Shown piece by piece: positions 47,824 through 64,000 of a stretch of DNA of 64,000 bases. Below the pieces are notes generated by a model. That model did no database searches. It was given only the letters and a program-made list of their open reading frames with translations, and was not told where the DNA came from. The stretch's first letter is position 1. Each line of letters starts with the position of its first letter. This DNA comes from an uncultured Cytophagales bacterium (GTDB taxonomy: Bacteria > Bacteroidota > Bacteroidia > Cytophagales > JAAEPT01). The stretch covers positions 129,531-193,530 of the forward strand of contig CAWFGW010000007.1 of the NCBI GenBank assembly GCA_963815495.1, in the 5' to 3' direction. A program made the position numbers and the translations under genes.

Positions 47824-50800
47824 TTAATCTATTTTAGAGAAAGATAATTTATCTGTTTGATTAGTAGCATAGTTCGTTAGAACTAAATGATAAATCCCAG
47901 AAGATAAATCAGAAACATCTATTACAAACTCGTTATCAATAGATTTCACTAAAGTTCCTTTTGAAGAATAAATTTCAACCCCCACATTACCAGAAAATTC
48001 TTCTGAAATATTTATAGACAATAAGTCCTGAGTTGGGTTTGGATATATTGATAAGGTCTGTTCTGAAGATAAAAAGTCAACTGAACTTCTTGCCCCAGAT
48101 AAAGTTGTAAACACCTTAGACTCTGATGGCAAAGATTTAGTTTCACCAGAGCAGTTAGATGATACTTGTACAGCATAAATATTCGAAGAAGTTAGAGAGG
48201 TTAACATTTTATAATTTGACCCCACATTGGTATCATAAATCCAATTATTACTATTAGCTAATTTATATCTAAAAGTATATGAAGTAGCTGCTGCTACCGA
48301 AGTCCAATCGACTTCTGCGGAAGTACTTGTAATATTGGTAATGGCAATATCTTTTGGAACTGTACAACTAGATGTACCACTTGTTGATTGATTTAACAAG
48401 CCACTCCAAGTGGACGTTAAGTTACCAGATTCACATACAGCACTAATTCTAAACCTATACAATGTTCCTCCGTCTAATGAAGCTACGGTATAAGAAGAAG
48501 GGTTTGTAGTAGTGGTTGGTGTCCAAACAGTCTCATATGAAGCGCGGGTAGTAATGATATAACTATCTGCACCAGAATCAACCCAACCTAACGTAATGCT
48601 GTTATCGTCAAAAGAACTCACACTAAAATTAGCTGGAGGTTGACATATCGAAACTCCGCTAGTTGTAAAATCATTTCTATTGCCTGGCAGAGATGTTGAA
48701 TACAAAGAAATTAAATCGTCTTCAGTAGAGCAAACCGTTTGGACTTCAAACCTATATACCGTACCCGCATACAAAGAGCTTAATAAAACATTTGTCGAAG
48801 ATGTATTAATTACATCGGTTATTGGAGCACTTTTAGGGCTATAAAGGACATTGTAGCTATCTGCTCCTGGTACAGGGTTCCAAGAAACCGAGCCAGCATT
48901 TTCACCAATATTTGTACCTGAAATTCCTGTTGGAGCCTGACATATATATGTTTCGAAATCTACTGAATCACTCCATGAAGACACGAGAGAAACATAATCA
49001 TTGGAACAATCCAATTGAACACCTACATAATATGTGGTTCCCTGATTTAAATTAGTAAGTTCAATATTTGCATCAGTTAACCCTGAAATTTCAGTCCATG
49101 ATGGAGTTCCTAAACTTCGATACCTCACGTTGTATACACTAAATGGAGTTGAGCTTGACCATGATAAGTTACTACGTTTAAAATCAATACTGTCTACAAC
49201 TAAGTCTAAAGGTAAATAGCTATCGCAATCAACTCCATAGTCTGTTAAAACACTGTCTTCAATTGAAAAACCGCTAAACACCTGATTATCAATGGAACAT
49301 TCAGTTCTAACTTGCCATGTATATAAAGTTCCTGAATCTAAAGGGTTTACTGAATATGAATTCGTTGCTATATTATTTACATATATCCATGATGGCGAGT
49401 TTGCCTCTTTATAACGTAACAAATACTCAGCTCCTGCATTTTCTGACCAGTTAAATTGAACAGTGTTGGTAGTTACCCCTGAAGTAGATAAACTTGTTGG
49501 TATGCTACAAGTATAATCAGAATTCGTATAAAATGTGAATGAGCTTGTAAAACCAGAGTTTGAGGTATTGTCAACATTACATTCAGTACCTACCTGAACT
49601 TGATATTGAGATCCAGCATCTAAACCTGTTAGTATACGAGAGTTTGTAGAAATATCGAAAATATAAACCCAGTTTGATGATGTTGTCTTTTTATACCTCA
49701 TAAGGTATTCAACACCAGTACCTATTATAGCTGTCCAAGACAAATTTGCCGTTGAACTCGATATGCTAGAGGCTGTTAAACCTGAAGGAATAGTACATGA
49801 ATAAGCAGGGCTAGTATAAAATGTTATTGAAGAGGTAAAACCAGATTTAGTGACATTGTCATTGTCACATTCAGTGCCAACCTGAACTTGATACTGTATT
49901 CCAGCATCTAAACCTGTCAGTATACGGGAGTTTGTTGATATATCAAAAATATAAATCCAATTGGCAGACGAAGTCTTTTTATACCTAACCAAATATTGAG
50001 CACCTGGATTATTTGACCAAGTCAAATTTGCAGATGAACTTGTTATACTTGAAGCCAACAAATTCGTAGGAGTGGTACATGGATAAGCAGGACTTGTATA
50101 AAAAACAATAGAAGTAGTAAAACCTGATTTAGAAACATTATCTATATCACATTCGGTACCAACTTGTACTTGATATTGACTTCCAGCATCTAAACCAGTA
50201 ATAGTACGGGAGTTAGTGGGTATATCATATATATAAATCCAATTAGCAGATGAAGTTTTTTTATACCTCATTAAATATTCAACACCAGTACCTGCAATCG
50301 CTTGCCAAGTTAAATTTGCTGAAGAACTCGTTTTTGATATTAGTTGAAAATTTGAAGGAATTGTACAAGAATAATTAGGAGCTGTATAAAAAGTTACCGA
50401 TGGAGAAAAACCTGATTTGTTTAAGTTGTCTACATCACATTCAGTACCAACTTCAACTTGATATTGGATCCCTGCAGTTAAGCCAGTTAAAGTTAGGGAG
50501 TTGGTTTGTATATTATAAATATAAAACCAGTCGTCAGATGTGGTTACTTTATATCTGACAAGGTACTCTACTCCTGTTCCAGCAATTGCATTCCATGTTA
50601 AATTTGTAGTTGAATTTGTAGTGCCTGAAACCGATAGATTTGAAGGGATTGTACAAGGGTATGAAGGGTTTGTGTAAAAAGTTATTTGTGTAAAACCTGA
50701 TTTTTCAACCTCACCACATTGAGTGCCAACTTCAACTTGATATTGAACACCAGCGTCTAACCCATTCAACATAAATGTATTGGATGGTATATCAAAAACA

Positions 50801-50994
50801 TAAGTCCAATTTGCTATTGTTGTTTTTTTATATCGGATACGATACTCAATTCCAGTACCAGTCACCGAGGACCATGACAAGTTCGCAGAAGAACTTGTTA
50901 TGTTGGAGGCTGAAAATGAACTTGGTTTCTCACACGCAGCGTTTACTAGTTGTGCAGTCAGAAACATTGTTAATATTAGAAGTAGATTTTTCAT
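47824..50994 (-). CDS. secreted protein with ~11 fibronectin-type-III-like modules and a T9SS C-terminal sorting domain
   Basis: Signal peptide, then repeated ...ANLTW...EY..RYK....W.Y...I.TNS..LTGL.AG.QYQV.VGTEC... modules. C-terminal LSIYPNPTQDLLSI...SGIYHLVL is typical of a type A T9SS CTD. Confidence 0.8.
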   Translation of the reverse strand: MKNLLLILTMFLTAQLVNAACEKPSSFSASNITSSSANLSWSSVTGTGIEYRIRYKKTTIANWTYVFDIPSNTFMLNGLDAGVQYQVEVGTQCGEVEKSGFTQITFYTNPSYPCTIPSNLSVSGTTNSTTNLTWNAIAGTGVEYLVRYKVTTSDDWFYIYNIQTNSLTLTGLTAGIQYQVEVGTECDVDNLNKSGFSPSVTFYTAPNYSCTIPSNFQLISKTSSSANLTWQAIAGTGVEYLMRYKKTSSANWIYIYDIPTNSRTITGLDAGSQYQVQVGTECDIDNVSKSGFTTSIVFYTSPAYPCTTPTNLLASSITSSSANLTWSNNPGAQYLVRYKKTSSANWIYIFDISTNSRILTGLDAGIQYQVQVGTECDNDNVTKSGFTSSITFYTSPAYSCTIPSGLTASSISSSTANLSWTAIIGTGVEYLMRYKKTTSSNWVYIFDISTNSRILTGLDAGSQYQVQVGTECNVDNTSNSGFTSSFTFYTNSDYTCSIPTSLSTSGVTTNTVQFNWSENAGAEYLLRYKEANSPSWIYVNNIATNSYSVNPLDSGTLYTWQVRTECSIDNQVFSGFSIEDSVLTDYGVDCDSYLPLDLVVDSIDFKRSNLSWSSSTPFSVYNVRYRSLGTPSWTEISGLTDANIELTNLNQGTTYYVGVQLDCSNDYVSLVSSWSDSVDFETYICQAPTGISGTNIGENAGSVSWNPVPGADSYNVLYSPKSAPITDVINTSSTNVLLSSLYAGTVYRFEVQTVCSTEDDLISLYSTSLPGNRNDFTTSGVSICQPPANFSVSSFDDNSITLGWVDSGADSYIITTRASYETVWTPTTTTNPSSYTVASLDGGTLYRFRISAVCESGNLTSTWSGLLNQSTSGTSSCTVPKDIAITNITSTSAEVDWTSVAAATSYTFRYKLANSNNWIYDTNVGSNYKMLTSLTSSNIYAVQVSSNCSGETKSLPSESKVFTTLSGARSSVDFLSSEQTLSIYPNPTQDLLSINISEEFSGNVGVEIYSSKGTLVKSIDNEFVIDVSDLSSGIYHLVLTNYATNQTDKLSFSKID
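49240..50935. repeat. tandem ~280-290-bp coding repeats (first six Fn3 modules, highly similar)
   Basis: Modules 2-6 share long identical peptide runs (RYKKTSSANWIYI.DI.TNSR.LTGLDAG.QYQVQVGTEC). Boundaries are approximate. Confidence 0.6.
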
Positions 50995-51204
50995 ATCTTA
51001 TTGAATTATTATATGCAAGTTAATATTTTTATTACTAAATTTTTTAAATAATTACGAGACAAATTCATTTCTGGATTTATTTATTAGATTATATTTTTAA
51101 ACAAACCGTTGCCCGGCTCTTAACTAATGCTTTTTTGATATATAAAAAATGGATTTTTTTACTTAGTTATAAAAAGTTAATCCTTAGTTTTATTATTCCT
51201 TAGT

Positions 51205-52338
51205 TCAATTATAATGTGCTTCATACTGTTTCACAACATTTTCCAAAGAAAGTAGTTTTCTAGTCAAAGGAACAGCTTTTTCTTTAAATTCAGTATAGGG
51301 AAATTGATTATTTACAGCCTCTATAATTATATTTTTAAATTTATTAAAGTCGTTTGCTTTCACCACTATACCACACCGCGCTTCTTCCAGAATTTCTTTT
51401 GCAGAACTCACATCAAAAGAAATGACAGGTACTCCACAAGACAAACTCTCAATCATGCACCTCGCTAACCCCTCTCTATCAGAAACCACTAGCGACCAAT
51501 CAAAAACATTGTACCACTCCTCTACTCGTGCTTGATATGGCAACAATTGAACAAGTGATTCTAATTGATTTGCATGTACCAAGTCTTGACATTTTTTTGC
51601 ATAAGCATTCGTCACAGGTTCAAAGTCACCAATTAAATAAAACATTACTTTTTGTTTGATTTCAAGAGGTAGTGTAGCAACACACTTTTCAATAAATAAA
51701 TCTTGTTGTTTAATGTGTTCAAACCGCCCTACAATACCAAAAATTAATTTATTGGAAGGTAGATTTAGTTTCTCCTTTAATTGATTTTTATCCAAAGGCT
51801 TGAATTTATTAAAATCAACAATACTATAGGTATAGCTAATTTTATCTTTTACTACTGGAAAATGTTTGACCACACGATGCATCATATCTTTAGACAACAC
51901 TATGACATGATCTACAAAAGGAAGTACAATATTCCAGCTTCTTGGGTAAGTGGCTCCTTCAGGTTTAACAGCTCGCTTATTAAAAATCAACTTTTTAAAC
52001 GACAACTTTACTCCTAAAAAACTAGCCATCAATGATTGAATATCATTACAATGTACTGTAGATACATTTATACGTTTCAATAAGAAAAAAACATACAGGT
52101 TTCTAAATACTAAATTATATAACTTGTTTTTTTTCTCTCGTTTGACAACTACTGTTGCTCCGGCATTTTCCCACTTCAAATTGAAGTTAGAATTTGATTG
52201 CGTTAGCACATACACAGTGTGTTTTGAGGCAAGCTCCTGAATCACATTCGTGACACTTTGTACACCACCATTACCTTTAACACCGGTTTGGTAAATAATA
52301 AAAAGTATAGACTTATTTTGTGTAACTTCTAAAGGCAT
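51205..52338 (-). CDS. GT4-family glycosyltransferase
   Basis: REGLARCMIESLSCGVPVISF motif. Confidence 0.75.
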   Translation of the reverse strand: MPLEVTQNKSILFIIYQTGVKGNGGVQSVTNVIQELASKHTVYVLTQSNSNFNLKWENAGATVVVKREKKNKLYNLVFRNLYVFFLLKRINVSTVHCNDIQSLMASFLGVKLSFKKLIFNKRAVKPEGATYPRSWNIVLPFVDHVIVLSKDMMHRVVKHFPVVKDKISYTYSIVDFNKFKPLDKNQLKEKLNLPSNKLIFGIVGRFEHIKQQDLFIEKCVATLPLEIKQKVMFYLIGDFEPVTNAYAKKCQDLVHANQLESLVQLLPYQARVEEWYNVFDWSLVVSDREGLARCMIESLSCGVPVISFDVSSAKEILEEARCGIVVKANDFNKFKNIIIEAVNNQFPYTEFKEKAVPLTRKLLSLENVVKQYEAHYN

Positions 52339-52418
52339 AGATCTCTATTATTTTAAAAGAGAGCTCGAAAATAGCTTATTTCTTTAAAAGAACTTAATTT
52401 TCTGTTTCAATTTAGATT

Positions 52419-54914
52419 TTGGAACTCGAATTTCACCATAGTCAATCACCACAAGAGCGCAAAACACTTTTCGCTGATATAATATTACCTTTACCCCTTC
52501 CTAAGCTTTTTACCTATAGAGTACCCTATGATTTAAATGATGTAGTGGGAAAAGGTTTTCGTGTAGTCGTTCAATTTGGCAACCGTAAGGTATATACAGG
52601 TATAGTCGCTAAACTACACACAACGCCTCCGAGTAATTATGAAGCAAAATATATTTTAGATGTACTCGATGAAAAACCTGCTATCACATCAAAACAACTC
52701 GATTTTTATAACTGGTTAGCAGATTATTACCTCTGTAACATAGGTGATGTCATTCAGGCAGGACTTCCTTCTGGTCTAAAAATAAGCAGTGAGTCCCGAA
52801 TTCAACTTAATCCTCATACCGACATCGCTAGCTTGACTCTGAATGAGTATGAGACCCTAATTATTAATCACCTTCAAGAAAAAGATTTTTTAACCTATGA
52901 CGATGTTTCAAACATTACTCAGAAAAAAGGCATATCCAAGCTGATTCGTTCGCTGCTAGAGAAAGAAGCTATTCTGCTGTATGAAAAAATAAAAGATAAA
53001 TACCAGCCAAAAACGATTGCTAAAATTCGTCTATTGCCCGAGTATCTGTCTGAGAAAGCGATGGAAGAACTGTTTTCAGTACTTGAAAAAAAACAGAAAC
53101 AATTGGAAGTCTTGCTGCAATACTTACAAAAAGTACCTGTTTTAGATAACCCACAAGCCAATGAAGATGGAATCGAGAAGAACGCTTTATTAAACGCATC
53201 CATTTCTCCTTCTTCCTTAAATACACTGATTAAAAATAAGGTGTTTGTACAATTTGAACTGGTGGTCTCACGAATTGAAGAATTCGATCTTCCGGAACAA
53301 GAAATTAAGCTCAGTACTCACCAAGAGGAAAAAGAAAACGAACTATTACAACATTTTGAAACGAAAAACCATGTGTTGTTGCATGGCATCACGGGCAGCG
53401 GAAAAACAGAAATTTACATTAGCTTAATTCTAAAAGCGATTGAAAATGGCACGCATGTGTTATTGCTTTTACCTGAGATAGCCTTAACCACACAAATTGT
53501 GTCTCGGTTGCGCAAGGTGTTTGGCAACGACATGGCGGTTTATCACTCACGCTACAGTGATAATGAACGTGTGGAAGTATATAAAGGCGTATTAGAAAAT
53601 AATTACCCACTGATTGTGGGTGTACGTTCGGCTGTCTTTCTACCTTTCTCCAATTTAGGGATGGTCATCATCGATGAGGAGCACGATAGTTCTTACAAAC
53701 AATATGATCCGGCTCCGCGCTACAACGCACGCGATGCTGCACTGGTACTTGCTAAAATACATGGAGCAAAAGTATTACTCGGCTCTGCCACACCTTCGAC
53801 TGAAAGTTATTTTCATGCCTCTTCCGGTAAATGGGGTTATGTGAAACTGTTTGAACGCTATGGCAACGCTACGCTTCCAGATATTTTACCGGTTGATATT
53901 CGCTATGATCACCAAGGGGGATCTAGCTTTTCTAAAACCCTTTTACATGCAATTGAAGACCGCTTGAGCAAAAAAGAACAAGTGATCTTATTTCAAAACC
54001 GCAGGGGTTACTCGCCTTACATTGAATGTAACGACTGTAATGAAATTGTGATGTGCCCTAACTGTAATGTGAGTTTGACATACCACCAATTTTCTAACGA
54101 CATGCGGTGTCATTACTGTGGACATCATCAGGGAGTACCCACCAACTGTGAGGCGTGCGGCTCCACGAAAATAAACACCAAAGGGTTTGGTACTGAACGT
54201 ATTGAAGAAGGGTTGCAATTGTATTTTCCTGAAGCTGCTATTCAGCGCATGGACTTGGACACTACACGTAAAAAAACAGCTTACCAAACCATCATCGATG
54301 ATTTTGAATCGGGAAGAGTAGACATTTTGGTCGGCACCCAAATGGTCACAAAAGGCCTCGATTTTGACAACGTAAGTTTGGTGGGAGTTTTTGAAATCGA
54401 CCGTATGCTATACTTTCCCGATTATCGTTCGCATGAGCGCACTTACCAGATGCTAACACAAGTAAGCGGCAGAGCAGGACGAAAAGAGAAAAAAGGACTC
54501 GTAATCGTACAAACAAGCAACACCGAGCACGAAACGATTCAAGCGGTACTGAAAGGTGAGAAAGAGAACTTTTATACCAAAGAGATTAACGACCGCGAGG
54601 AGTTTAACTACCCCCCTTTTTCACGGTTAATTCGCATCACTATTCGTCATGAAGACAAGCTCAAAAGTATGGATAGTGCGACTTACCTTGCCCAGCAACT
54701 GCGTAGAAAATTACAACACCGCATACTTGGACCTGAAGAACCTGGGATCAACAGAATTAGAAACTTATTTTTAACAGATATCCTCATCAAACTCGAGCGT
54801 GGATCGCTAGATTTAGCTAAAGCCAAAGCCTTTATATTGGAGGAAGTCAACAAAATTAAAACGCATAAAACCCACCGAAAGTCGATGTATACAATTGATG
54901 TGGATCCGGTTTAA
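52419..54914 (+). CDS. priA: primosomal protein N' (replication restart helicase)
   Basis: Walker A GITGSGKTE, DEEHD, and a Cys-rich zinc module (CNDCN...CPNCN...CHYCG...CEACG). Confidence 0.9.
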   Translation: MELEFHHSQSPQERKTLFADIILPLPLPKLFTYRVPYDLNDVVGKGFRVVVQFGNRKVYTGIVAKLHTTPPSNYEAKYILDVLDEKPAITSKQLDFYNWLADYYLCNIGDVIQAGLPSGLKISSESRIQLNPHTDIASLTLNEYETLIINHLQEKDFLTYDDVSNITQKKGISKLIRSLLEKEAILLYEKIKDKYQPKTIAKIRLLPEYLSEKAMEELFSVLEKKQKQLEVLLQYLQKVPVLDNPQANEDGIEKNALLNASISPSSLNTLIKNKVFVQFELVVSRIEEFDLPEQEIKLSTHQEEKENELLQHFETKNHVLLHGITGSGKTEIYISLILKAIENGTHVLLLLPEIALTTQIVSRLRKVFGNDMAVYHSRYSDNERVEVYKGVLENNYPLIVGVRSAVFLPFSNLGMVIIDEEHDSSYKQYDPAPRYNARDAALVLAKIHGAKVLLGSATPSTESYFHASSGKWGYVKLFERYGNATLPDILPVDIRYDHQGGSSFSKTLLHAIEDRLSKKEQVILFQNRRGYSPYIECNDCNEIVMCPNCNVSLTYHQFSNDMRCHYCGHHQGVPTNCEACGSTKINTKGFGTERIEEGLQLYFPEAAIQRMDLDTTRKKTAYQTIIDDFESGRVDILVGTQMVTKGLDFDNVSLVGVFEIDRMLYFPDYRSHERTYQMLTQVSGRAGRKEKKGLVIVQTSNTEHETIQAVLKGEKENFYTKEINDREEFNYPPFSRLIRITIRHEDKLKSMDSATYLAQQLRRKLQHRILGPEEPGINRIRNLFLTDILIKLERGSLDLAKAKAFILEEVNKIKTHKTHRKSMYTIDVDPV

Positions 54915-54993
54915 TAAAACCCTTTTTTCTTCGCTATTTATTTAAAAGTTTTTAGATTGATTTTAGGTTTTTGAAGATTGAGTAAAAACGCAT

Positions 54994-55092
54994 AAAAAAA
55001 GCCCCGAAGATAGTCGAGGCAAGGCTAAATGTTTACACAACGGAATAATCCTTATTGTGAATTGCTTTCAAACATAACAAAGGTATCAGATA
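54994..55092 (-). ncRNA. tracrRNA (anti-repeat + nexus-like hairpin + intrinsic terminator)
   Basis: +55055-55074 equals nt 2-21 of the reverse-complemented CRISPR repeat. The minus-strand RNA reads ...UGUUUGAAAGCAAUUCACAAU-AAGGAUUAUUCCG-UUGUGUAAACAUUUAGCCUU-GCCUCGACUAUCUUCGGGGC-U7. The 5' end is approximate. Confidence 0.85.
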
Positions 55093-55115
55093 CTTTTAAA
55101 CATAAAAAATAAAAG

Positions 55116-58100
55116 ATGAAAAAGATTTTAGGGCTGGATTTGGGGACAAACTCGATTGGGTGGGCGCTAGTTAACCAAGATTTTGGAAATAAACAAGGAG
55201 AAATAATTGGTTTAGGAAGCCGAATTATTCCCATGAGTCAAGATATTCTCGGAGAATTTGGAAAAGGTAATTCGGTATCTCAAACCGCGGAAAGAACTGG
55301 CTACAGAGGAGTTCGAAGATTAAGAGAAAGGCACTTACTTCGTAGAGAACGATTACACCGAGTATTAAACATTTTATACTTTTTGCCTAAGCATTATGCC
55401 GACCAAATAGATTTTGAAAAAAAATTAGGGAAGTATGTTGAAGGTTCAGAACCAAAATTGGTTTATGACAACGACTTCATCTTCAAAAAGTCTTTTGAGG
55501 AGATGTTAAATGACTTTAAACAAAATCAACCACAGTTACTAATCAATAAAAAAGGAGAACCAGCTTTAGTCCCTTACGATTGGACTATTTATTATTTGCG
55601 TAAAAAAGCACTAACTCAAAAAATAGATAAACAAGAATTAGCATGGATTATCCTGAATTTCAATCAGAAACGTGGTTATTATCAGTTAAGAGGTGAAGAA
55701 GAGGAAGAAAACCCAAATAAGCTTGTTGAGTTCTATTCCTTAAGAATCGTTGATGTTGTACCTGATGAAGAACCCAATAAGAAAGGAGAAACGTGGTATT
55801 CATTACTTTTAGAAAACGGCTGGACTTATAGACGCTCCAGTAAAACTTCTTTGGATGATTGGAAAGACAAAATGAGAGACTTTATTGTTACTACTGACTT
55901 GAATGATGATGGTACAATTAAAACAGATAAAGATGGAGTTGAAAAGCGTAGTTTCAGAGCACCAAAAGAAGACGATTGGGGATTAGTTAAGAAAAAAACA
56001 GAACAGGAAATAGAACAAACAAACAAGACAGTCGGACAATACATCTATGATGCTTTACTTCGTGACCCTAAACAGAAGATAAAAGGGAAACTGGTTCGAA
56101 CTATAGAACGCAGATTTTACAAAGAAGAGTTAAAAGCTATTTTAAAGAAACAAATTGAATTTCAACCTGAATTATTTTCAGATGACTTGTATAATGAATG
56201 TATAAGAGAATTATACAAAAACAACGAAGCACATCAACTTTCTTTGAGCAAAAAAGGCTTCATAAACTTATTTGTTAATGACATCATATTCTATCAACGT
56301 CCATTAAGAAGTCAAAAATCTTCCATCAGTAATTGCTCTTTAGAATTCCGAACATATAAAGTTGATGGCATTAATAAGCAAGAATATTTGAAAGCCATTC
56401 CAAAATCAAATCCTTATTATCAAGAATTTAGAGTGTGGCAATGGTTGTATAATCTGAAAATTTTTAAAAATGAAGATGATACAGATGTAACTGGTTTTTT
56501 TATCAAGAGTGTTGAAGACATAGAAAATATTTTTGAATTTTTAATGAGTCAAAAAGAAGTTGATCATAAAGATGTTTTAAAGTATTTCTTCAATGATTTA
56601 AAAGGCAAAGCTTTAAATGAGGCAATTTCTCTGTATCGTTGGAATTATGTATTCGACTCTGAAAAAGGAGAATCGAAAAAATACCCAATGAATGAAACTG
56701 GACATGAAATTAACCGAAGGTTGAGCAAGGTTAATGATGTTCCATTAGGTTTCTTAAAAATGTTGGACACAAAAGAGATAACAACTAAGAAAACGAAAGA
56801 AAGGAGAATTGTAACACTAGGAACAAGAGAAGAACAGCTTTGGCAAATAATGTATTCAGTTACTGATAAAAAGGAATATGAGCAAGCTTTGAACTCTTTT
56901 GCAGATAAATACAATTTGGATAAAGAATCATTTGTAGAGAATTTTAAAAAATTCCCTCCTTTCAAAAGTGATTATGGTACTTTTTCAGAAAAAGCAATTA
57001 AAAGACTATTGCCTTTATTGAGAATAGGGAAATACTGGAATTGGGATAAAATTGATAAGCATACAAAAAACCGAATAGAAAATATAATCAATGCTGTAGA
57101 TGATGAAATAAGATTAATTGTTCGTGAAAAAGCTGAAAAACACCAATTAACATTGGAGAATGATTTTCAAGGGTTACCTCTTTGGTTGGCTCAATATATT
57201 GTTTACGACCGTCATTCAGAAGCAAGTGTTGCAGGTAAATGGAATTCCGTTTCAGATTTAGAAAACTTCCTTGAAGAATTCAAACAACATTCTTTACGCA
57301 ATCCGATTGTTGAGCAAGTGGTAACAGAAACACTTCGTGTGGTGAAAGACATTTGGCAGCATTACGGTTGCGGAGCTAAAGATTTCTTTGACGAAATTCA
57401 TATTGAGTTGGGTAGAGAAATGAAAAACACCGCAGATGAACGCAAAAGGTTGACAAGCATTGTAACAGAAAATCAAAACACAAATCTTCGTATCAAAGCT
57501 CTTTTAATTGAGATGATGAATGATATTAACGTTGAAAACGTACGTCCTTTTTCTCCATCGCAACAAGAGATATTAAAGATTTACGAAGAAGGTGTTCTTA
57601 ATTCAAGTATTGAAATTGAGGAAGAGATACTAAAAATCAGCAAAAAATCCGAACCCACAAAATCCGAATTACAACGCTATAAGTTATGGATGGAACAAAA
57701 ATACAGGTCACCATACACAGGACAAATTATTCCTTTGAATAAGTTATTTACACCTGAATATGAGATAGAACATATTATTCCACAAAGTAGATTTTTTGAT
57801 GATAGCTTTAGCAATAAAGTGATATGTGAATCAGCAGTTAATAAGCTAAAAGACAATCAAATTGGATTAGAATTTATCAAAAATCATTATGGACAAAAAA
57901 TTTCTCTAGGATTCGGGAAAGAGGTTCAGATTTTTACCGAAGAACAATACAAAGAATTTGTCAAAGAGAACTATTCAAAAAATAGAAGCAAGCGAAACAA
58001 GCTTTTGTTAGAAGACATTCCCGAAAAGATGATTGAAAGACAGCTAAATGATACGAGATACATCAGTAAATTCATCTCTCATGTATTATCGAATATTGTT

Positions 58101-59543
58101 AGAGGTGAAAAAACCGATGAAGGAGTGACGTCTAAAAATATTATTCCAGGAAACGGAAAAATAACAACTGAACTTAAACATGATTGGGGATTGAATGATG
58201 TTTGGAATGATTTGATTTTACCTCGTTTTGAGCGAATGAATGAAATAACAAAATCAAATGATTTCACTACATATAACAAAAAACACCAAAAACATCTTCC
58301 TACAGTTCCTTTCGAGCTAAGCAAAGGATTCCAAAAGAAGCGTATAGACCACAGGCATCATGCTTTAGATGCTTTAGTAATAGCTTGTGCAACTAGAGAT
58401 CATATCAATTTATTGAACAATCAATCTGGTAAATCTGAAATGAAGCGATATGATTTACAGAATAAATTACGCAGAAAAGAACCCTACTTTAATCAAAAAG
58501 AAAACAGACAAAAAGAAGCTTTTAAAGAGTTCTACAAACCATGGAAAACTTTTACCGAAGATACTCGAGAAGTATTGGAAACGACTGTTGTAAGTTTTAA
58601 ACAAAACCTTCGAGTCATTAATAAAGCAACGAATAAGCACGAAAAGTGGATAGAGAAAAACGGAGAAAAGAAAAAAGGATTAGTGGAGCAAATAGGCGTG
58701 AATTGGGCGATTAGAAAACCAATGCACAGAGAAACAGTTTCTGGAAAAATAGACTTACCTAGAATCAAAGTTGCTAAAGGGAAAATTTTAACGGCAACAA
58801 GAAAGAGTATTGACACTTCTTTTAATTTAAAAGTAATAGAATCTATTACAGACACAGGTATTCAAAAAATCCTTCAAAATTATTTATCAAGTAAGAATGG
58901 TGATTCTGAACTGGCTTTTTCTCCGGAAGGAATTGAAGATATGAATAAGAATATTGAAAAGTTTAATGAGGGAAAATTTCATCAGCCAATATATAAAGCA
59001 AGAATTTTTGAAGTCGGAAGTAAATTTTCATTAGGTCATTCTGGAAATAAAAAAGATAAATATGTAGAAGCAGCAAAAGGAACTAATCTATTCTTTGCGG
59101 TTTATCAAGATGAAATTGGAAAGAGAAGTTATGCAACCGTTCCATTAAACGAAGTTATTGAAAGACAAAAGCAAGGTCTGTTTTCAGTTCCCGAGACCAA
59201 TGAAAAAGGTGACAAACTTTTGTTTTCTCTTTCTCCAAATGATTTAGTTTATGTTCCTATGGAAAATGAAGATGTGAAAAGTATAAATTTTAATGATTTG
59301 ACAAAAGAACAAACTGATAGAATCTATAAAATGGAAAAAGCATCAGGCAGCGAATGTTATTTTATTCGATGTAATATTGCCACCTTGATTAAACAATATG
59401 ATGCTAAATCAAAATTAGGAGAACTTTCTAGTCAAAACAAATTAGAAACTACAATGGAAATCAACTCAACCGATAGAATCAAAGAACAATGTTGGAAATT
59501 AGAGACTACAAGATTAGGAGAGATTAAAAATGTAATTAAATAG
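55116..59543 (+). CDS. cas9: type II-C Cas9 (1475 aa)
   Basis: RuvC-I GLDLGTNSIGWA (Asp8, 55137-55139). Arg-rich bridge helix RTGYRGVRRLRERHLLRRERL. HNH YEIEHIIPQS...N (His886, 57771-57773). RuvC-III DHRHHALDALV. Confidence 0.95.
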   Translation: MKKILGLDLGTNSIGWALVNQDFGNKQGEIIGLGSRIIPMSQDILGEFGKGNSVSQTAERTGYRGVRRLRERHLLRRERLHRVLNILYFLPKHYADQIDFEKKLGKYVEGSEPKLVYDNDFIFKKSFEEMLNDFKQNQPQLLINKKGEPALVPYDWTIYYLRKKALTQKIDKQELAWIILNFNQKRGYYQLRGEEEEENPNKLVEFYSLRIVDVVPDEEPNKKGETWYSLLLENGWTYRRSSKTSLDDWKDKMRDFIVTTDLNDDGTIKTDKDGVEKRSFRAPKEDDWGLVKKKTEQEIEQTNKTVGQYIYDALLRDPKQKIKGKLVRTIERRFYKEELKAILKKQIEFQPELFSDDLYNECIRELYKNNEAHQLSLSKKGFINLFVNDIIFYQRPLRSQKSSISNCSLEFRTYKVDGINKQEYLKAIPKSNPYYQEFRVWQWLYNLKIFKNEDDTDVTGFFIKSVEDIENIFEFLMSQKEVDHKDVLKYFFNDLKGKALNEAISLYRWNYVFDSEKGESKKYPMNETGHEINRRLSKVNDVPLGFLKMLDTKEITTKKTKERRIVTLGTREEQLWQIMYSVTDKKEYEQALNSFADKYNLDKESFVENFKKFPPFKSDYGTFSEKAIKRLLPLLRIGKYWNWDKIDKHTKNRIENIINAVDDEIRLIVREKAEKHQLTLENDFQGLPLWLAQYIVYDRHSEASVAGKWNSVSDLENFLEEFKQHSLRNPIVEQVVTETLRVVKDIWQHYGCGAKDFFDEIHIELGREMKNTADERKRLTSIVTENQNTNLRIKALLIEMMNDINVENVRPFSPSQQEILKIYEEGVLNSSIEIEEEILKISKKSEPTKSELQRYKLWMEQKYRSPYTGQIIPLNKLFTPEYEIEHIIPQSRFFDDSFSNKVICESAVNKLKDNQIGLEFIKNHYGQKISLGFGKEVQIFTEEQYKEFVKENYSKNRSKRNKLLLEDIPEKMIERQLNDTRYISKFISHVLSNIVRGEKTDEGVTSKNIIPGNGKITTELKHDWGLNDVWNDLILPRFERMNEITKSNDFTTYNKKHQKHLPTVPFELSKGFQKKRIDHRHHALDALVIACATRDHINLLNNQSGKSEMKRYDLQNKLRRKEPYFNQKENRQKEAFKEFYKPWKTFTEDTREVLETTVVSFKQNLRVINKATNKHEKWIEKNGEKKKGLVEQIGVNWAIRKPMHRETVSGKIDLPRIKVAKGKILTATRKSIDTSFNLKVIESITDTGIQKILQNYLSSKNGDSELAFSPEGIEDMNKNIEKFNEGKFHQPIYKARIFEVGSKFSLGHSGNKKDKYVEAAKGTNLFFAVYQDEIGKRSYATVPLNEVIERQKQGLFSVPETNEKGDKLLFSLSPNDLVYVPMENEDVKSINFNDLTKEQTDRIYKMEKASGSECYFIRCNIATLIKQYDAKSKLGELSSQNKLETTMEINSTDRIKEQCWKLETTRLGEIKNVIK

Positions 59544-59606
59544 GTGTAATCAAAACCAATATTTCCGAAAACTAAATATTCACAAAGATTAAATAACAAA
59601 TAACCT

Positions 59607-59822
59607 ATGCAATCAGAAACTAATTATCACCTCTATAACAACGACAACTCGGTAAACTACTACCGAAGCACAGGACGCTATTTTTTGCATCAATGGTGTA
59701 AGTATATAACACCTGTGGTAGGCATGTGTGGATATTATTTAATGCCCATCCCTCTTATTTTTTTAATTAGAACACCTAAAGAAGAAAAAGTATTCGCATA
59801 TGTTCAAATGAAGAACCCCTAA
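59607..59822 (+). pseudogene. degenerate N-terminal fragment of a RAYT/IS200-like HUH transposase
   Basis: It aligns by eye with the intact RAYT at 63080-63682: YHLYNNDN/FHIYNHAN, RYFLHQ/RYFLRK, YITPV/YIYPL, YYLMPIPLIFLIRTPKE/YCLLPNHFHLMVRIRSE, VFAYV/LFEYL. HUH is lost (PLI instead of HFH). It ends at the same palindrome that lies inside the intact gene. Confidence 0.6.
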
Positions 59823-59825
59823 CCT

Positions 59826-59858
59826 AATCCTCGAGGATTTTAAAACACTCGGAGGATT
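59826..59858. repeat. REP-like palindrome A (imperfect)
   Basis: AATCCTCGAGGATTTTAAAACACTCGGAGGATT. It lies 17 nt upstream of the cas1 ATG. Confidence 0.8.
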
Positions 59859-59875
59859 GTCAACTAGTTAAAGCT

Positions 59876-60769
59876 ATGATAAAACGAACGCTACTCTTTG
59901 GAAACCCTGCTTACCTCAGCACAAAAAACGAACAATTAGTTGTTAAGTATCCTGATGAAGCGCTTGATACTAAAACAGTAGCCATTGAAGACATTGGCGT
60001 ATTGTTATTAGAAGATCCTCAAATTACTATCACCACGGGGTTGATTGACAAACTCACCGCCAACCAAACAGCCATTATCACCTGCGACCGTAACCACATG
60101 CCAACAGGCTTGTTGATGCCGCTTAGCGGACATAGTGAACAACAAGAACGGTTTAGGGCACAACTAAGCGCCAGCGAACCGTTGAGAAAAAACCTATGGC
60201 AACAGACGGTACAGTCAAAAATTAAAAACCAAGCGTTACACCTCAAAGAACGAGGCACGGCTATCGACAATATGCTGCATTGGGTAAAAAGCGTGACCTC
60301 AGGCGATACCCAAAACCATGAAGCACGGGCGGCTGCTTATTACTGGCAACAGTTGTTTGATTTACCGCACTTCAACCGACATGCAGGAGGCGAAGCGCCC
60401 AACAACTTACTGAACTATGGTTACGCTATCTTAAGAGCTGTTTGCTCGCGAGCATTAGTGAGCAGTGGTTTACTTCCCCTACTCGGCATTCATCACAAAA
60501 ATAAATACAACGCCTACTGCCTGGCCGATGACATCATGGAACCTTACCGACCTTATGTTGACCTGGTGGTGTGCCACATCGTGGACAACTTGGGCGATTA
60601 CGAAACATTAACGACTGACTTAAAAAAAGAACTGTTACAAATACCGGTGTTGGATGTGATGATTGACGGCAAAAAAAGTCCGTTGATGGTGGCGATGAGT
60701 CGCACCACCAGTTCGCTGTACGATTGTTTTGCTGGCAATAGTCGGAAAATCAGCTATCCAGAGTTTTAG
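59876..60769 (+). CDS. cas1: Cas1 integrase (type II)
   Basis: 297 aa with NLLNYGYAILR...GIHH...ADDIMEPYRP motifs. Confidence 0.95.
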   Translation: MIKRTLLFGNPAYLSTKNEQLVVKYPDEALDTKTVAIEDIGVLLLEDPQITITTGLIDKLTANQTAIITCDRNHMPTGLLMPLSGHSEQQERFRAQLSASEPLRKNLWQQTVQSKIKNQALHLKERGTAIDNMLHWVKSVTSGDTQNHEARAAAYYWQQLFDLPHFNRHAGGEAPNNLLNYGYAILRAVCSRALVSSGLLPLLGIHHKNKYNAYCLADDIMEPYRPYVDLVVCHIVDNLGDYETLTTDLKKELLQIPVLDVMIDGKKSPLMVAMSRTTSSLYDCFAGNSRKISYPEF

Positions 60770-60774
60770 ACTAC

Positions 60775-60807
60775 AATCCTCGGAGGTTTTGAAAACCTCC
60801 GAGGATT
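60775..60807. repeat. REP-like palindrome B (perfect 16-bp arms)
   Basis: AATCCTCGGAGGTTTT-G-AAAACCTCCGAGGATT, located between the cas1 stop and the cas2 start. Confidence 0.9.
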
Positions 60808-60827
60808 AAAACGATTACAAACACTAA

Positions 60828-61184
<357 letters not shown>

Positions 61185-61255
61185 AAAAGCGGTTTGTTTT
61201 TTAATTCCAATTAATAAAGTAATTCACAGAATACCAACCAATTAGCTTGGGGTAT

Positions 61256-63048
61256 CCTGTGAATTATCACTTAAGATAAGTGTTTGAAAGCAATTCACAA
61301 CCATGGTTAGTGAGAAGGTTCAATTCCTTCTCCTGTGAATTATCACTTAAGATAAGTGTTTGAAAGCAATTCACAACGAACTGACATAAAACGCAAACGT
61401 AAATTATCCTGTGAATTATCACTTAAGATAAGTGTTTGAAAGCAATTCACAACTATTAGTTCCGCATCCTGTTTTGATACCTCCCTGTGAATTATCACTT
61501 AAGATAAGTGTTTGAAAGCAATTCACAACTGATTGCCACATCTTCAACTAGCCCATAGGCCTGTGAATTATCACTTAAGATAAGTGTTTGAAAGCAATTC
61601 ACAACTTGTAAGTTGGTGTTCTTTCGTTTTCTAAACCTGTGAATTATCACTTAAGATAAGTGTTTGAAAGCAATTCACAACATCAGACAAGAGATACCTT
61701 TTTTTATTCTACCTGTGAATTATCACTTAAGATAAGTGTTTGAAAGCAATTCACAACCTTCAAGCCTTTCAATTCTTCTTGATTCCCCCTGTGAATTATC
61801 ACTTAAGATAAGTGTTTGAAAGCAATTCACAACGGAAAAGGTAAATGGTTAAAATTATACAGACCTGTGAATTATCACTTAAGATAAGTGTTTGAAAGCA
61901 ATTCACAACGGCTCACCAAGAGCTTCACCAGCCCATTCGCCTGTGAATTATCACTTAAGATAAGTGTTTGAAAGCAATTCACAACACCTTTAGTTGCACC
62001 CACGTAGTACAAGCCCCTGTGAATTATCACTTAAGATAAGTGTTTGAAAGCAATTCACAACAGTAAAATAGGTGTGCAGATAATCGCTATTCCTGTGAAT
62101 TATCACTTAAGATAAGTGTTTGAAAGCAATTCACAACAGATTTTGCCTTTTCTATTTCTAAAAGCAACCTGTGAATTATCACTTAAGATAAGTTTTTGAA
62201 AGCAATTCACAACTACCTCATAAGCTGGTAAATAAAGCCCTTTCCTGTGAATTATCACTTAAGATAAGTGTTTGAAAGCAATTCACAACGGGTTTTAGAT
62301 AGTTCAAACAATCGTATATCCTGTGAATTATCACTTAAGATAAGTGTTTGAAAGCAATTCACAACTTCAATGGAGTAAAGGGAACATCTCAGGGGCCTGT
62401 GAATTATCACTTAAGATAAGTGTTTGAAAGCAATTCACAACGAGCCTCTTCCAATTCAGAAGATTTGATTTCCTGTGAATTATCACTTAAGATAAGTGTT
62501 TGAAAGCAATTCACAACCTAGTTCGTGAGGTAGTTTAAAACTATTCTCCTGTGAATTATCACTTAAGATAAGTGTTTGAAAGCAATTCACAACTAAGGAG
62601 TTAGGGTTTCATTATGCTTGTTTCCTGTGAATTATCACTTAAGATAAGTGTTTGAAAGCAATTCACAACTACTTCATCTACAAACTTCAACTCCTTAGCC
62701 CTGTGAATTATCACTTAAGATAAGTGTTTGAAAGCAATTCACAACTGGAACAGCAACCGTAACTATTGATGGAAGCCTGTGAATTATCACTTAAGATAAG
62801 TGTTTGAAAGCAATTCACAACGATAGATATCACATTGATAGGGGTAATTTACCTGTGAATTATCACTTAAGATAAGTGTTTGAAAGCAATTCACAACCCG
62901 TGATAATACCATCAATCCTTGAACGGCCTGTGAATTATCACTTAAGATAAGTGTTTGAAAGCAATTCACAACTAGGAGAAGAAACAAAACGATTGTTATT
63001 CTCCTGTGAATTATCACTTAAGATAAGTGTTTGAAAGCAATTCACAAC
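61256..63048 (-). CRISPR. CRISPR array: 24 repeats of 46 bp and 23 spacers (22 x 30 bp, one 29 bp), transcribed on the minus strand
   Basis: + strand repeat CCTGTGAATTATCACTTAAGATAAGTGTTTGAAAGCAATTCACAAC. The crRNA-sense repeat is GTTGTGAATTGCTTTCAAACACTTATCTTAAGTGATAATTCACAGG. Period 76 bp. Orientation is fixed by complementarity to the terminator-bearing tracrRNA. Confidence 0.97.
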
Positions 63049-63071
63049 TTTTAACCCTCGGAGGGTTAAAA
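63049..63071. repeat. REP-like palindrome C
   Basis: TTTTAACCCTC-G-GAGGGTTAAAA. It starts at the base immediately after the last CRISPR repeat. Confidence 0.85.
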
Positions 63072-63079
63072 ATTAAGGT

Positions 63080-63682
63080 TTAAAACTCAAATAAACCCTC
63101 ATTAATTGTGATATTGTTATGAAAGTCCAACAATGCTTGTTTGTTACCAAACCACTCCTGGAGGTACATTCGATTGATCTTCGTGGGTTTTTCGAGGCAA
63201 TAAGCATGGATAGAAGAATGTTTCCAGTCGAGTAAGTTGCAACAAAACCCGTGTTTTACTGGGTTTAAGTGTATGTAAGCTATAAGTCTGGTAAAGTAAG
63301 TCTCATCCTGTACCGGTTTGCGTTTAAACCGATGCATAAAAAGACTGCCTTTTCTATCATACATCTCATTATAGGCTTTTGAGTAAGCATTAAAAAAGTT
63401 ACTAAATTGTTTTGATACTAGACCTCCGAGGTTTTCAAAACCTCGGAGGTCTTTACCTTTTAAATATTCAAACAACACGTCCTCACTCCTTATCCTCACC
63501 ATTAGATGAAAATGATTAGGCAACAAACAATACGCATAAGTATCGGCTAGAGGATAGATGTAGTCAGCATATTTACGAAGAAAATAACGATAGTTTTCAT
63601 CGTTTCTAAATAGATTTTCGCTACCATTGGCATGATTGTAAATGTGGAAAACAGTGTCTGGTAAAAGTGGTTCTAAATACAT
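63080..63682 (-). CDS. REP-associated tyrosine transposase (RAYT) / IS200-like Y1 HUH transposase
   Basis: HUH motif PNHFHLMV and catalytic-Tyr motif AYIHLNPVKHG, in a 200-aa protein. Confidence 0.8.
   Translation of the reverse strand: MYLEPLLPDTVFHIYNHANGSENLFRNDENYRYFLRKYADYIYPLADTYAYCLLPNHFHLMVRIRSEDVLFEYLKGKDLRGFENLGGLVSKQFSNFFNAYSKAYNEMYDRKGSLFMHRFKRKPVQDETYFTRLIAYIHLNPVKHGFCCNLLDWKHSSIHAYCLEKPTKINRMYLQEWFGNKQALLDFHNNITINEGLFEF
63420..63452. repeat. REP-like palindrome D, in frame inside the RAYT ORF
   Basis: AGACCTCCGAGGTTTT-C-AAAACCTCGGAGGTCT, which encodes KDLRGFENLGGL. Confidence 0.9.
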
Positions 63683-63697
63683 AGCTGGTTTATTTTA

Positions 63698-63714
63698 TTA
63701 ACCCTCAGAGGGTG
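63698..63714. repeat. REP-like palindrome E
   Basis: TTAACCCTC-A-GAGGGTG. It lies 16 bp upstream of the RAYT ATG. Confidence 0.7.
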
Positions 63715-63746
63715 TGAATAGAAAACTAAAAATCTTATTATTATTC

Positions 63747-64000
63747 TCAAATGCTAAGTGGTCTTTTACTGGTCAAAAAGGTTTTAAATGCTTCGCTTTT
63801 TAATACGGTTATTTGATCGATGAGCCCTAACACAAACCGCCCCACTCCTGCAAACTGACTTACCTTGCAACGTAATACATACATTTTTTTATCTTCATCA
63901 ACCAACGACAGGTAATTGATGGCCAACGGAAACTCTTTTATCAACAAAAGATACGCTTGAAAAGAGAGTTCTAATTCAATCGGTAAATCAGGTGTTCCAG
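63747..64000 (-). CDS. C-terminal end of a WYL/YafY-like transcriptional regulator (5' part outside window)
   Basis: The frame is open to the window edge (...GTPDLPIELELSFQAYLLLIKEFPLAINYLS...FAGVGRFVLGLIDQITVLKSEAFKTFL). It resembles the WCX C-terminal extension of WYL regulators. The assignment is tentative. Confidence 0.35.
   Translation of the reverse strand, partial: GTPDLPIELELSFQAYLLLIKEFPLAINYLSLVDEDKKMYVLRCKVSQFAGVGRFVLGLIDQITVLKSEAFKTFLTSKRPLSI

Follow-up and report, generated by a model that had tools for sequence, protein, structure and literature searches.

[quoted passage not shown]

Does the gap in front of cas9 in this Bacteroidota genome hold the tracrRNA gene of its CRISPR-Cas9 system, and from which promoter would such a gene be transcribed? 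A first-pass annotation of the window, the 64,000-nt stretch of DNA analysed here, had proposed that an unannotated tracrRNA is encoded in this gap and is read away from cas9. The gap measures 201 bp between priA (52419-54914, plus strand, the same strand as cas9), which lies upstream, and cas9 (55116-59543, plus strand), and the tracrRNA element is located inside it. We consider it highly probable that the minus strand from 55074 to 54994 is the tracrRNA gene of a type II-C CRISPR-Cas9 system, that its transcription starts just past a -7 box reading TACCTTTG, and that cas9 is divergent from it.

The cas locus and the RNA element upstream of cas9

The cas9 gene encodes a protein of 1475 aa, which is the Bacteroidota long form of type II-C Cas9 (TIGR01865 at 1.5e-123) and gave a full-length match of 2048 bits to CbCas9 (8iyq_A). 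It is followed on the plus strand by cas1 (59876-60769, TIGR03639) and cas2 (60831-61184, TIGR01573), and then by a CRISPR array at 61256-63048 with 24 repeats of 46 nt (Rfam CRISPR-DR50), the predicted crRNA sense of which is the minus strand. The order cas9-cas1-cas2-array, without csn2 or cas4, is that of type II-C. The frames of cas9, cas1 and cas2 are open and full length, 23 of the 24 array repeats are identical, and the only extra open reading frame of the operon is a single 71-aa frame without a family match. No PcrIIC1-like accessory gene was found between cas9 and cas1, where the short open reading frame was compared with NCBIfam only. Based on this gene content, the CRISPR-Cas system in the window is apparently an intact and complete type II-C system.

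The predicted tracrRNA (54994-55074, minus strand) opens with an anti-repeat at 55054-55074 on the minus strand, which, when cofolded with the minus-strand repeat, formed 21 consecutive pairs with nt 1-21 of the latter, namely 20 Watson-Crick pairs and a terminal G-U pair at the nexus-proximal end. The anti-repeat had been proposed at 55075-55054; the minus strand reads there as quoted, and the 21 bp with the repeat are formed by 55074-55054, while A55075 stands opposite a C outside the duplex and is unpaired. The anti-repeat is followed by a nexus-like element, AAGGAUUAUUCCG (55041-55053, minus strand), folding into a hairpin GGA-UUAU-UCC, and by UGU-GUAA-ACA (55030-55039, minus strand), a hairpin of 3 bp capped by a GNRA tetraloop. 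An intrinsic terminator at 54994-55020 on the minus strand has a 7-bp stem GCCUCGA/UCGGGGC, a 6-nt loop and U7. A terminator scan picked it out independently, and its fold is -9.9 kcal/mol. The nexus, the UGU-GUAA-ACA mini-hairpin and the hairpin with its U7 are thus all present at 55053-54994 as the first-pass annotation had described them. With its complementary anti-repeat and a 3' hairpin scaffold ending in an intrinsic terminator, the element has the makeup of the tracrRNA class, and it also has the location, inside or near a type II cas locus, being divergent from cas9 and 41 nt upstream of it.

Cofolding with the repeat, which had been put forward as a check, gave -48.4 kcal/mol and 21 bp for the minus-strand repeat, as against -31.9 kcal/mol for the plus-strand repeat. 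Considering that the minus-strand repeat cofolds far better, the array would supply the crRNA partner from its minus strand, in the direction opposite to the cas operon. In this orientation, the repeat begins with GUUGUGAAUUGC, and both the strand of the anti-repeat and the crRNA of the related Fp2Cas9 system described below suggest that the minus strand is the crRNA sense. The tracrRNA would complete the parts list of the type II-C system in this genome, and it would fix the crRNA sense as antisense to the cas operon.

A better anti-repeat with a terminator elsewhere would have refuted this assignment, and none was found in the 4.09-Mb assembly (94% complete). Apart from the array, the assembly matches the 20-nt anti-repeat core exactly at this one site, and the 18-nt nexus string is likewise unique in it. 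The next best anti-repeat, on contig 11, has 2 mismatches and was rejected, as it lies in unrelated sequence without a nexus or a terminator. The Rfam tracrRNA covariance model gave no match in 50000-64000 at E values up to 1, and only the CRISPR-DR50 repeats were detected there. That this model misses the element is a reason why such tracrRNA genes would stay unannotated.

When the free tracrRNA was folded on itself (55030-55075, minus strand), the fold had -20.3 kcal/mol. The end of the anti-repeat, CACAAU, paired with the invariant GUUGUG after the nexus, and AUGUUUG paired with UAAACAU; the post-nexus GUUGUG equals the first six letters of the repeat. Based on this model, the self-fold might mask the anti-repeat until Cas9 or crRNA binds.

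Conservation among relatives and comparison with known systems

To place the element among its relatives, we used the first 400 residues of Cas9 to search a set with one genome per species, which gave 80 loci at 66-82% identity. These loci span Flavobacteriales, Sphingobacteriales, Cytophagales, Chitinophagales and Bacteroidales, together with a few oddly labelled metagenome bins. The 18-nt nexus string was found on the strand opposite cas9 in 75 of the 80 loci, 50-637 nt upstream of the gene (63 nt in the window); of the five loci without it, two end too near cas9 to show it. The place and orientation of the element are shared by these 75/80 related loci. In an alignment of 49 representatives, no variation was seen in the stretch that begins with the 3' half of the anti-repeat and runs over the nexus to the small hairpin, with the nexus identical in 49/49. 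As such, one core of about 35 nt, GCAAWUCACAAU-AAGGAUUAUUCCG-UUGUG-NAAA-CA, is identical in the window, in the 75/80 loci and in the Fp2Cas9 tracrRNA (Table S2 of PMC12609912). This core is preserved without change in several Bacteroidota orders and is missed by Rfam; a covariance model built from the 75 loci would allow annotation pipelines to label the tracrRNA.

The small hairpin varies solely at the second base of its loop. Among 75 distinct tails including that of the window, the loops are GAAA (71), GUAA (3) and GCAA (1), all of them GNRA. Since the nexus and the mini-hairpin otherwise never vary, co-variation in the core can neither back nor contradict its fold. The terminators differ from one another in both length and sequence of their stems, so that an alignment of the whole family was unreliable and the tails were folded singly instead. 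A hairpin stands directly before the T-run in 73 of the 75 distinct tails (74 relatives and the window), with a median of -9.9 kcal/mol, and at least eight unrelated stem sequences are used in these hairpins. Pairs were counted inside the stem class of the window alone, which has 15 members: 100% of the cells are paired, the innermost pair being A-U, C-G or G-C, and this pairing was matched by no shuffle and by no slid register. The terminator stem thus shows co-variation with compensating changes.

Several loci stood out in this comparison. In L049, L055, L060 and L088, a string resembling the end of a repeat (…AAAGCAAWTCACAGC/AAC) occurs near cas9 without an adjacent nexus. The true tracrRNA of L055 lies 637 nt upstream of cas9. 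In L049, L060 and L088, the upstream stretch examined showed no nexus string. A rearranged layout, or an array on the upstream side of cas9, may explain these loci. L041, L099 and L104 are near-identical cas9-tracrRNA modules in bins labelled Limnohabitans, Bacillota and Ignavibacteria, and they represent either binning errors or transfers outside Bacteroidota.

The S. pyogenes tracrRNA has a nexus of the layout AAGGnUAnUCCGUU followed by two hairpins, the last of which is the terminator, and a G-U wobble closes its duplex on the nexus side. It belongs to a type II-A system with 36-nt repeats and a bulged duplex, is co-processed by RNase III and occurs in long and short forms (Deltcheva 2011, Jinek 2012, Briner 2014). 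The window resembles it in the divergence from cas9, the nexus-proximal G-U wobble, the AAGGnUAnUCCGUU-layout nexus and the two further hairpins ending in the terminator, but it differs in the system type, the repeat length and the absence of a bulge in the duplex.

A much closer counterpart is Fp2Cas9 of Flavobacterium psychrophilum, the 99-nt tracrRNA of which directs DNA cleavage in vitro together with crRNA (PMC12609912). Its essential region is nt 25-64 and its anti-repeat requires at least 14 nt (PMC12609912), and its sgRNA works in zebrafish (PMC10309648; PMC12609912). The authors of the F. psychrophilum study PMC10309648 regard the transcription of the tracrRNA in their own system as still unresolved. 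In strain CN46, the Fp2Cas9 tracrRNA is likewise upstream of cas9 and consists of an anti-repeat ending in AAGCAAUUCACAAU, the nexus AAGGAUUAUUCCG, GUUGUG-GAAA-ACAU, and a hairpin with a U-tract (PMC12609912 Table S2). Its crRNA repeat begins with GUUGUGAAUUGCUUUC, as in the window, and its essential nt 25-64 correspond to the invariant core of the window and the relatives. The two systems differ in the loop of the small hairpin, which is GUAA in the window and GAAA in Fp2, and in the terminator stem, which is of the GCCUCGA class in the window and of the GCGGCC class in Fp2. Furthermore, the perfect duplex is longer in the window (21 bp) than in Fp2, and the spacer to cas9 is 41 nt in the window, whereas an IS982 lies between tracrRNA and cas9 in CN46. 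A literature search with the exact nexus string returned one unrelated paper only; the match to Fp2Cas9 came from the supplementary table.

The Cas9 of the window is a full-length homologue of CbCas9 from Chryseobacterium sp., and Chryseobacterium loci among the relatives carry the same tracrRNA core. Structures of CbCas9 have been solved (PDB 8IYQ, 8WMH and others; PMC13153721, PMC12302564), the former paper citing Zhang et al. 2024 in Nature for this system. For Riemerella anatipestifer CRISPR1, a type II-C system with 47-nt repeats, a putative tracrRNA with a 16-nt anti-repeat upstream of cas9 was reported (PMC5006608). These 16 nt are found letter for letter in the window, also upstream of cas9 and also in a type II-C system; the report gives the anti-repeat alone, and a nexus, hairpins, a terminator and a promoter are absent from that paper. 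A Bacteroidetes subcluster of Cas9 with repeats of up to 48 nt has also been described (Chylinski et al., PMC3737331). Judged by these likenesses, the element is an ordinary one and belongs to a type of Bacteroidota type II-C tracrRNA that is already known and experimentally validated, that of Fp2Cas9 and CbCas9. By homology to these two systems, the tracrRNA would bind Cas9, with the nexus hairpin, the GNRA mini-hairpin and the terminator hairpin as the bound scaffold.

Candidate promoters and alternative readings

The housekeeping promoter of Bacteroidota consists of a -33 element TTTG and a -7 element TAnnTTTG, and transcription begins a few nt downstream of the -7 box (Bayley 2000; Chen 2007). 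We compared the positions of -7 boxes after aligning the relatives on the nexus (73 distinct loci). A perfect TAnnTTTG starts 28-39 nt upstream of the nexus in 51 of the 73 loci, and many of the remaining 22 have a box variant differing by one letter at the same position. In the window, this shared position is occupied by TACCTTTG (55078-55085, minus strand), which is a perfect TAnnTTTG and recurs as an octamer in L035, L094 and L103. Perfect TAnnTTTG boxes are rare, with 77 in the 128,000 strand positions of the window. Just before their boxes, the relatives have an A-rich tract (-13 to -8), and the window has AAAA at -12 to -9. As for the -33 region, the window has TATG at -19 to -16 and no clear TTG at the usual 21-23 nt upstream, and a TTG starts at -23 to -21 in 14 of 50 relatives. 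Based on its perfect match and shared position, TACCTTTG at 55085-55078 is most likely the -7 box of the tracrRNA gene. A second perfect TAnnTTTG, TATGTTTG (55069-55076, minus strand), is located inside the anti-repeat; it would cut the anti-repeat to about 8-10 nt if used, and is probably incidental.

With a start a few nt past TACCTTTG, the 5' end would be placed at about 55074-55068 and the RNA would measure about 77-81 nt with almost no 5' leader. In the proposed course of transcription, the RNA would start 4-10 nt past the box, at the first paired base of the anti-repeat, and would end at the hairpin and U7, with its 3' end in the U-tract. For the relatives with a box at -29, an anti-repeat of 13-17 nt is predicted to be transcribed, and this length agrees with the 14-nt minimum of Fp2Cas9.

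The first-pass annotation had instead placed the start at TAtgTTTa, read on the minus strand as TATGTTTA, which would overlap the cas9 box and yield an RNA of about 95-100 nt with a leader of about 15 nt, possibly as a long form beside a short one. The box itself is present, at 55104-55097, one base off the 55103-55096 originally given, and it matches the consensus at 5 of the 6 specified positions; long and short forms are also known for the tracrRNA of S. pyogenes (bioRxiv 10.1101/2020.05.21.102756). However, this box lies 19 nt upstream of TACCTTTG, is imperfect in that the conserved final G is missing, and has no counterpart at that distance in any relative, compared with the 51/73 loci having a box at the position of TACCTTTG. 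In addition, the 40 nt upstream of the anti-repeat contain no repeat-like segment able to fold back as in the S. pyogenes long form, and a natural sgRNA of that kind was considered and found to be unsupported for this reason. We therefore judge a start at TAtgTTTa to be improbable, and the start past TACCTTTG is preferred.

It may also be asked whether the element is a working RNA gene at all. Anti-repeats are thought to come from degenerate repeats (Chylinski 2013, PMC3737331), so the element could be a decayed orphan repeat that is no longer expressed or used, but a relic would hardly have kept a core that is letter-perfect against 75 relatives, an intact terminator and a perfect -7 box, next to open, full-length cas9, cas1 and cas2 genes and an array of 24 repeats with 23 identical; we regard decay as very improbable. 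Even less credible, to the point of being nearly dismissible, is that the 60-aa open reading frame on the minus strand (55052-55234) represents a genuine small gene beside which the RNA features arose by chance. The frame is open over its length, yet it has no NCBIfam match, two thirds of it are antisense to the most conserved part of cas9, and the relatives differ widely in the length of the spacer between cas9 and tracrRNA (about 20 to 600 nt), so that the frame cannot be conserved. We judged it to be non-coding: it is antisense to cas9 codons 1-40, that is, to the conserved N-terminus, and overlaps the anti-repeat of the RNA gene, and its dismissal as an artefact in the first-pass annotation is borne out. 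As such, a tracrRNA gene starting past TACCTTTG is the reading that we retain.

On the opposite strand, the best candidate for the -7 box of cas9 is TACTTTTA, which had been pointed out at 55091-55098 on the plus strand and is found there. It is near-consensus, with the G replaced by A, and stands 25 nt before the ATG; cas9 would be transcribed divergently from it. The identical octamer occurs in L035 at -24, and about a third of the relatives have a TAnnTTTA box between -22 and -38, which is weak evidence alone in such A+T-rich spacers. The tracrRNA box TACCTTTG and the cas9 box TACTTTTA are arranged back to back, 5 bp apart. The earlier proposal that both genes fire back to back from a shared core of about 15 bp holds in outline, but the boxes abut at 5 bp and neither overlap nor share a core. 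Fewer than 55 nt separate the anti-repeat from the ATG in about 25 relatives, and this compact form is one of two common layouts. Considering that the upstream region of each promoter falls in the transcribed DNA of the other, simultaneous occupancy by two polymerases seems unlikely in the compact layout. Alternatively, cas9 mRNA could arise by read-through from priA across the tracrRNA gene.

The relatives also include about 20 loci with a palindrome, TACGG-N4-CCGTA, exactly midway between the tracrRNA box and a TAnnTTTN box on the cas9 strand. The two boxes are 58 bp apart, and the distance from the palindrome centre to the first T of either box is 29 +/- 1 nt. It is seen in the tracrRNA-cas9 spacer of L035 (1389-1500), L053, L062, L064, L072, L094 and about 15 more. 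The palindrome recurs in Pedobacter, Chryseobacterium, Flavobacterium, Sphingobacterium and Terrimonas while the flanking sequence differs, and its variants are symmetric, e.g. TATGG...CCATA. This symmetry marks the two boxes as divergent promoters flanking an operator-like centre, which is stronger support for a cas9-side box than the recurrence of TAnnTTTA, and the palindrome looks like the putative operator of a dimeric regulator of cas9 and tracrRNA. No paper on TACGG-N4-CCGTA was found among those consulted here. In the window, 55076-55115 lacks the palindrome and about 52 bp around it. It is conceivable, though rather unlikely, that the window and other compact loci have lost palindrome control and now have mutually exclusive, unregulated back-to-back promoters for cas9 and tracrRNA. 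The revised promoter anatomy, with a perfect -7 box abutting the anti-repeat in the window and the palindrome in relatives, leads to concrete predictions on how the expression of cas9 and tracrRNA may be coupled in Bacteroidota.

The repeat array and crRNA maturation

In the proposed pathway, the array would be read on its minus strand, in the direction opposite to cas9-cas1-cas2, to give pre-crRNA. The 5' 21 nt of the tracrRNA would base-pair with nt 1-21 of every repeat, either in this precursor or in the crRNA. The resulting tracrRNA-crRNA duplex would load Cas9 with the spacer guide. How crRNA would mature in this organism was considered from its gene content. RNase III was not found in the 94%-complete assembly with NCBIfam TIGR02191 and Pfam PF14622, and it is present in 12/12 other genomes of the family. 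The fabF-rnc region of a same-genus genome gave no DNA match in the assembly, and the housekeeping fabF, the neighbour of RNase III in that genome, is also missing, with only paralogues of 33-36% identity on contig 34. Because fabF is missing too and all 12 family genomes have RNase III, the absence likely reflects an unassembled region and not gene loss. A maturation of crRNA independent of RNase III was considered and is unsupported by this absence, the region being probably unassembled.

The repeats themselves carry a further feature. At nt 24-31 of each repeat in the crRNA sense (61256-63048, minus strand), the window reads TATCTTAA; the Rfam CRISPR-DR50 consensus, when reverse-complemented, has a perfect -7 box, TATTTTTG, at these same positions. 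The inner hairpin of the window repeat, CACUUA/UAAGUG, is kept while its letters differ from the CRISPR-DR50 consensus. For F. columnare and F. psychrophilum, earlier studies put forward promoters inside the repeats (PMC8092290, PMC10309648).
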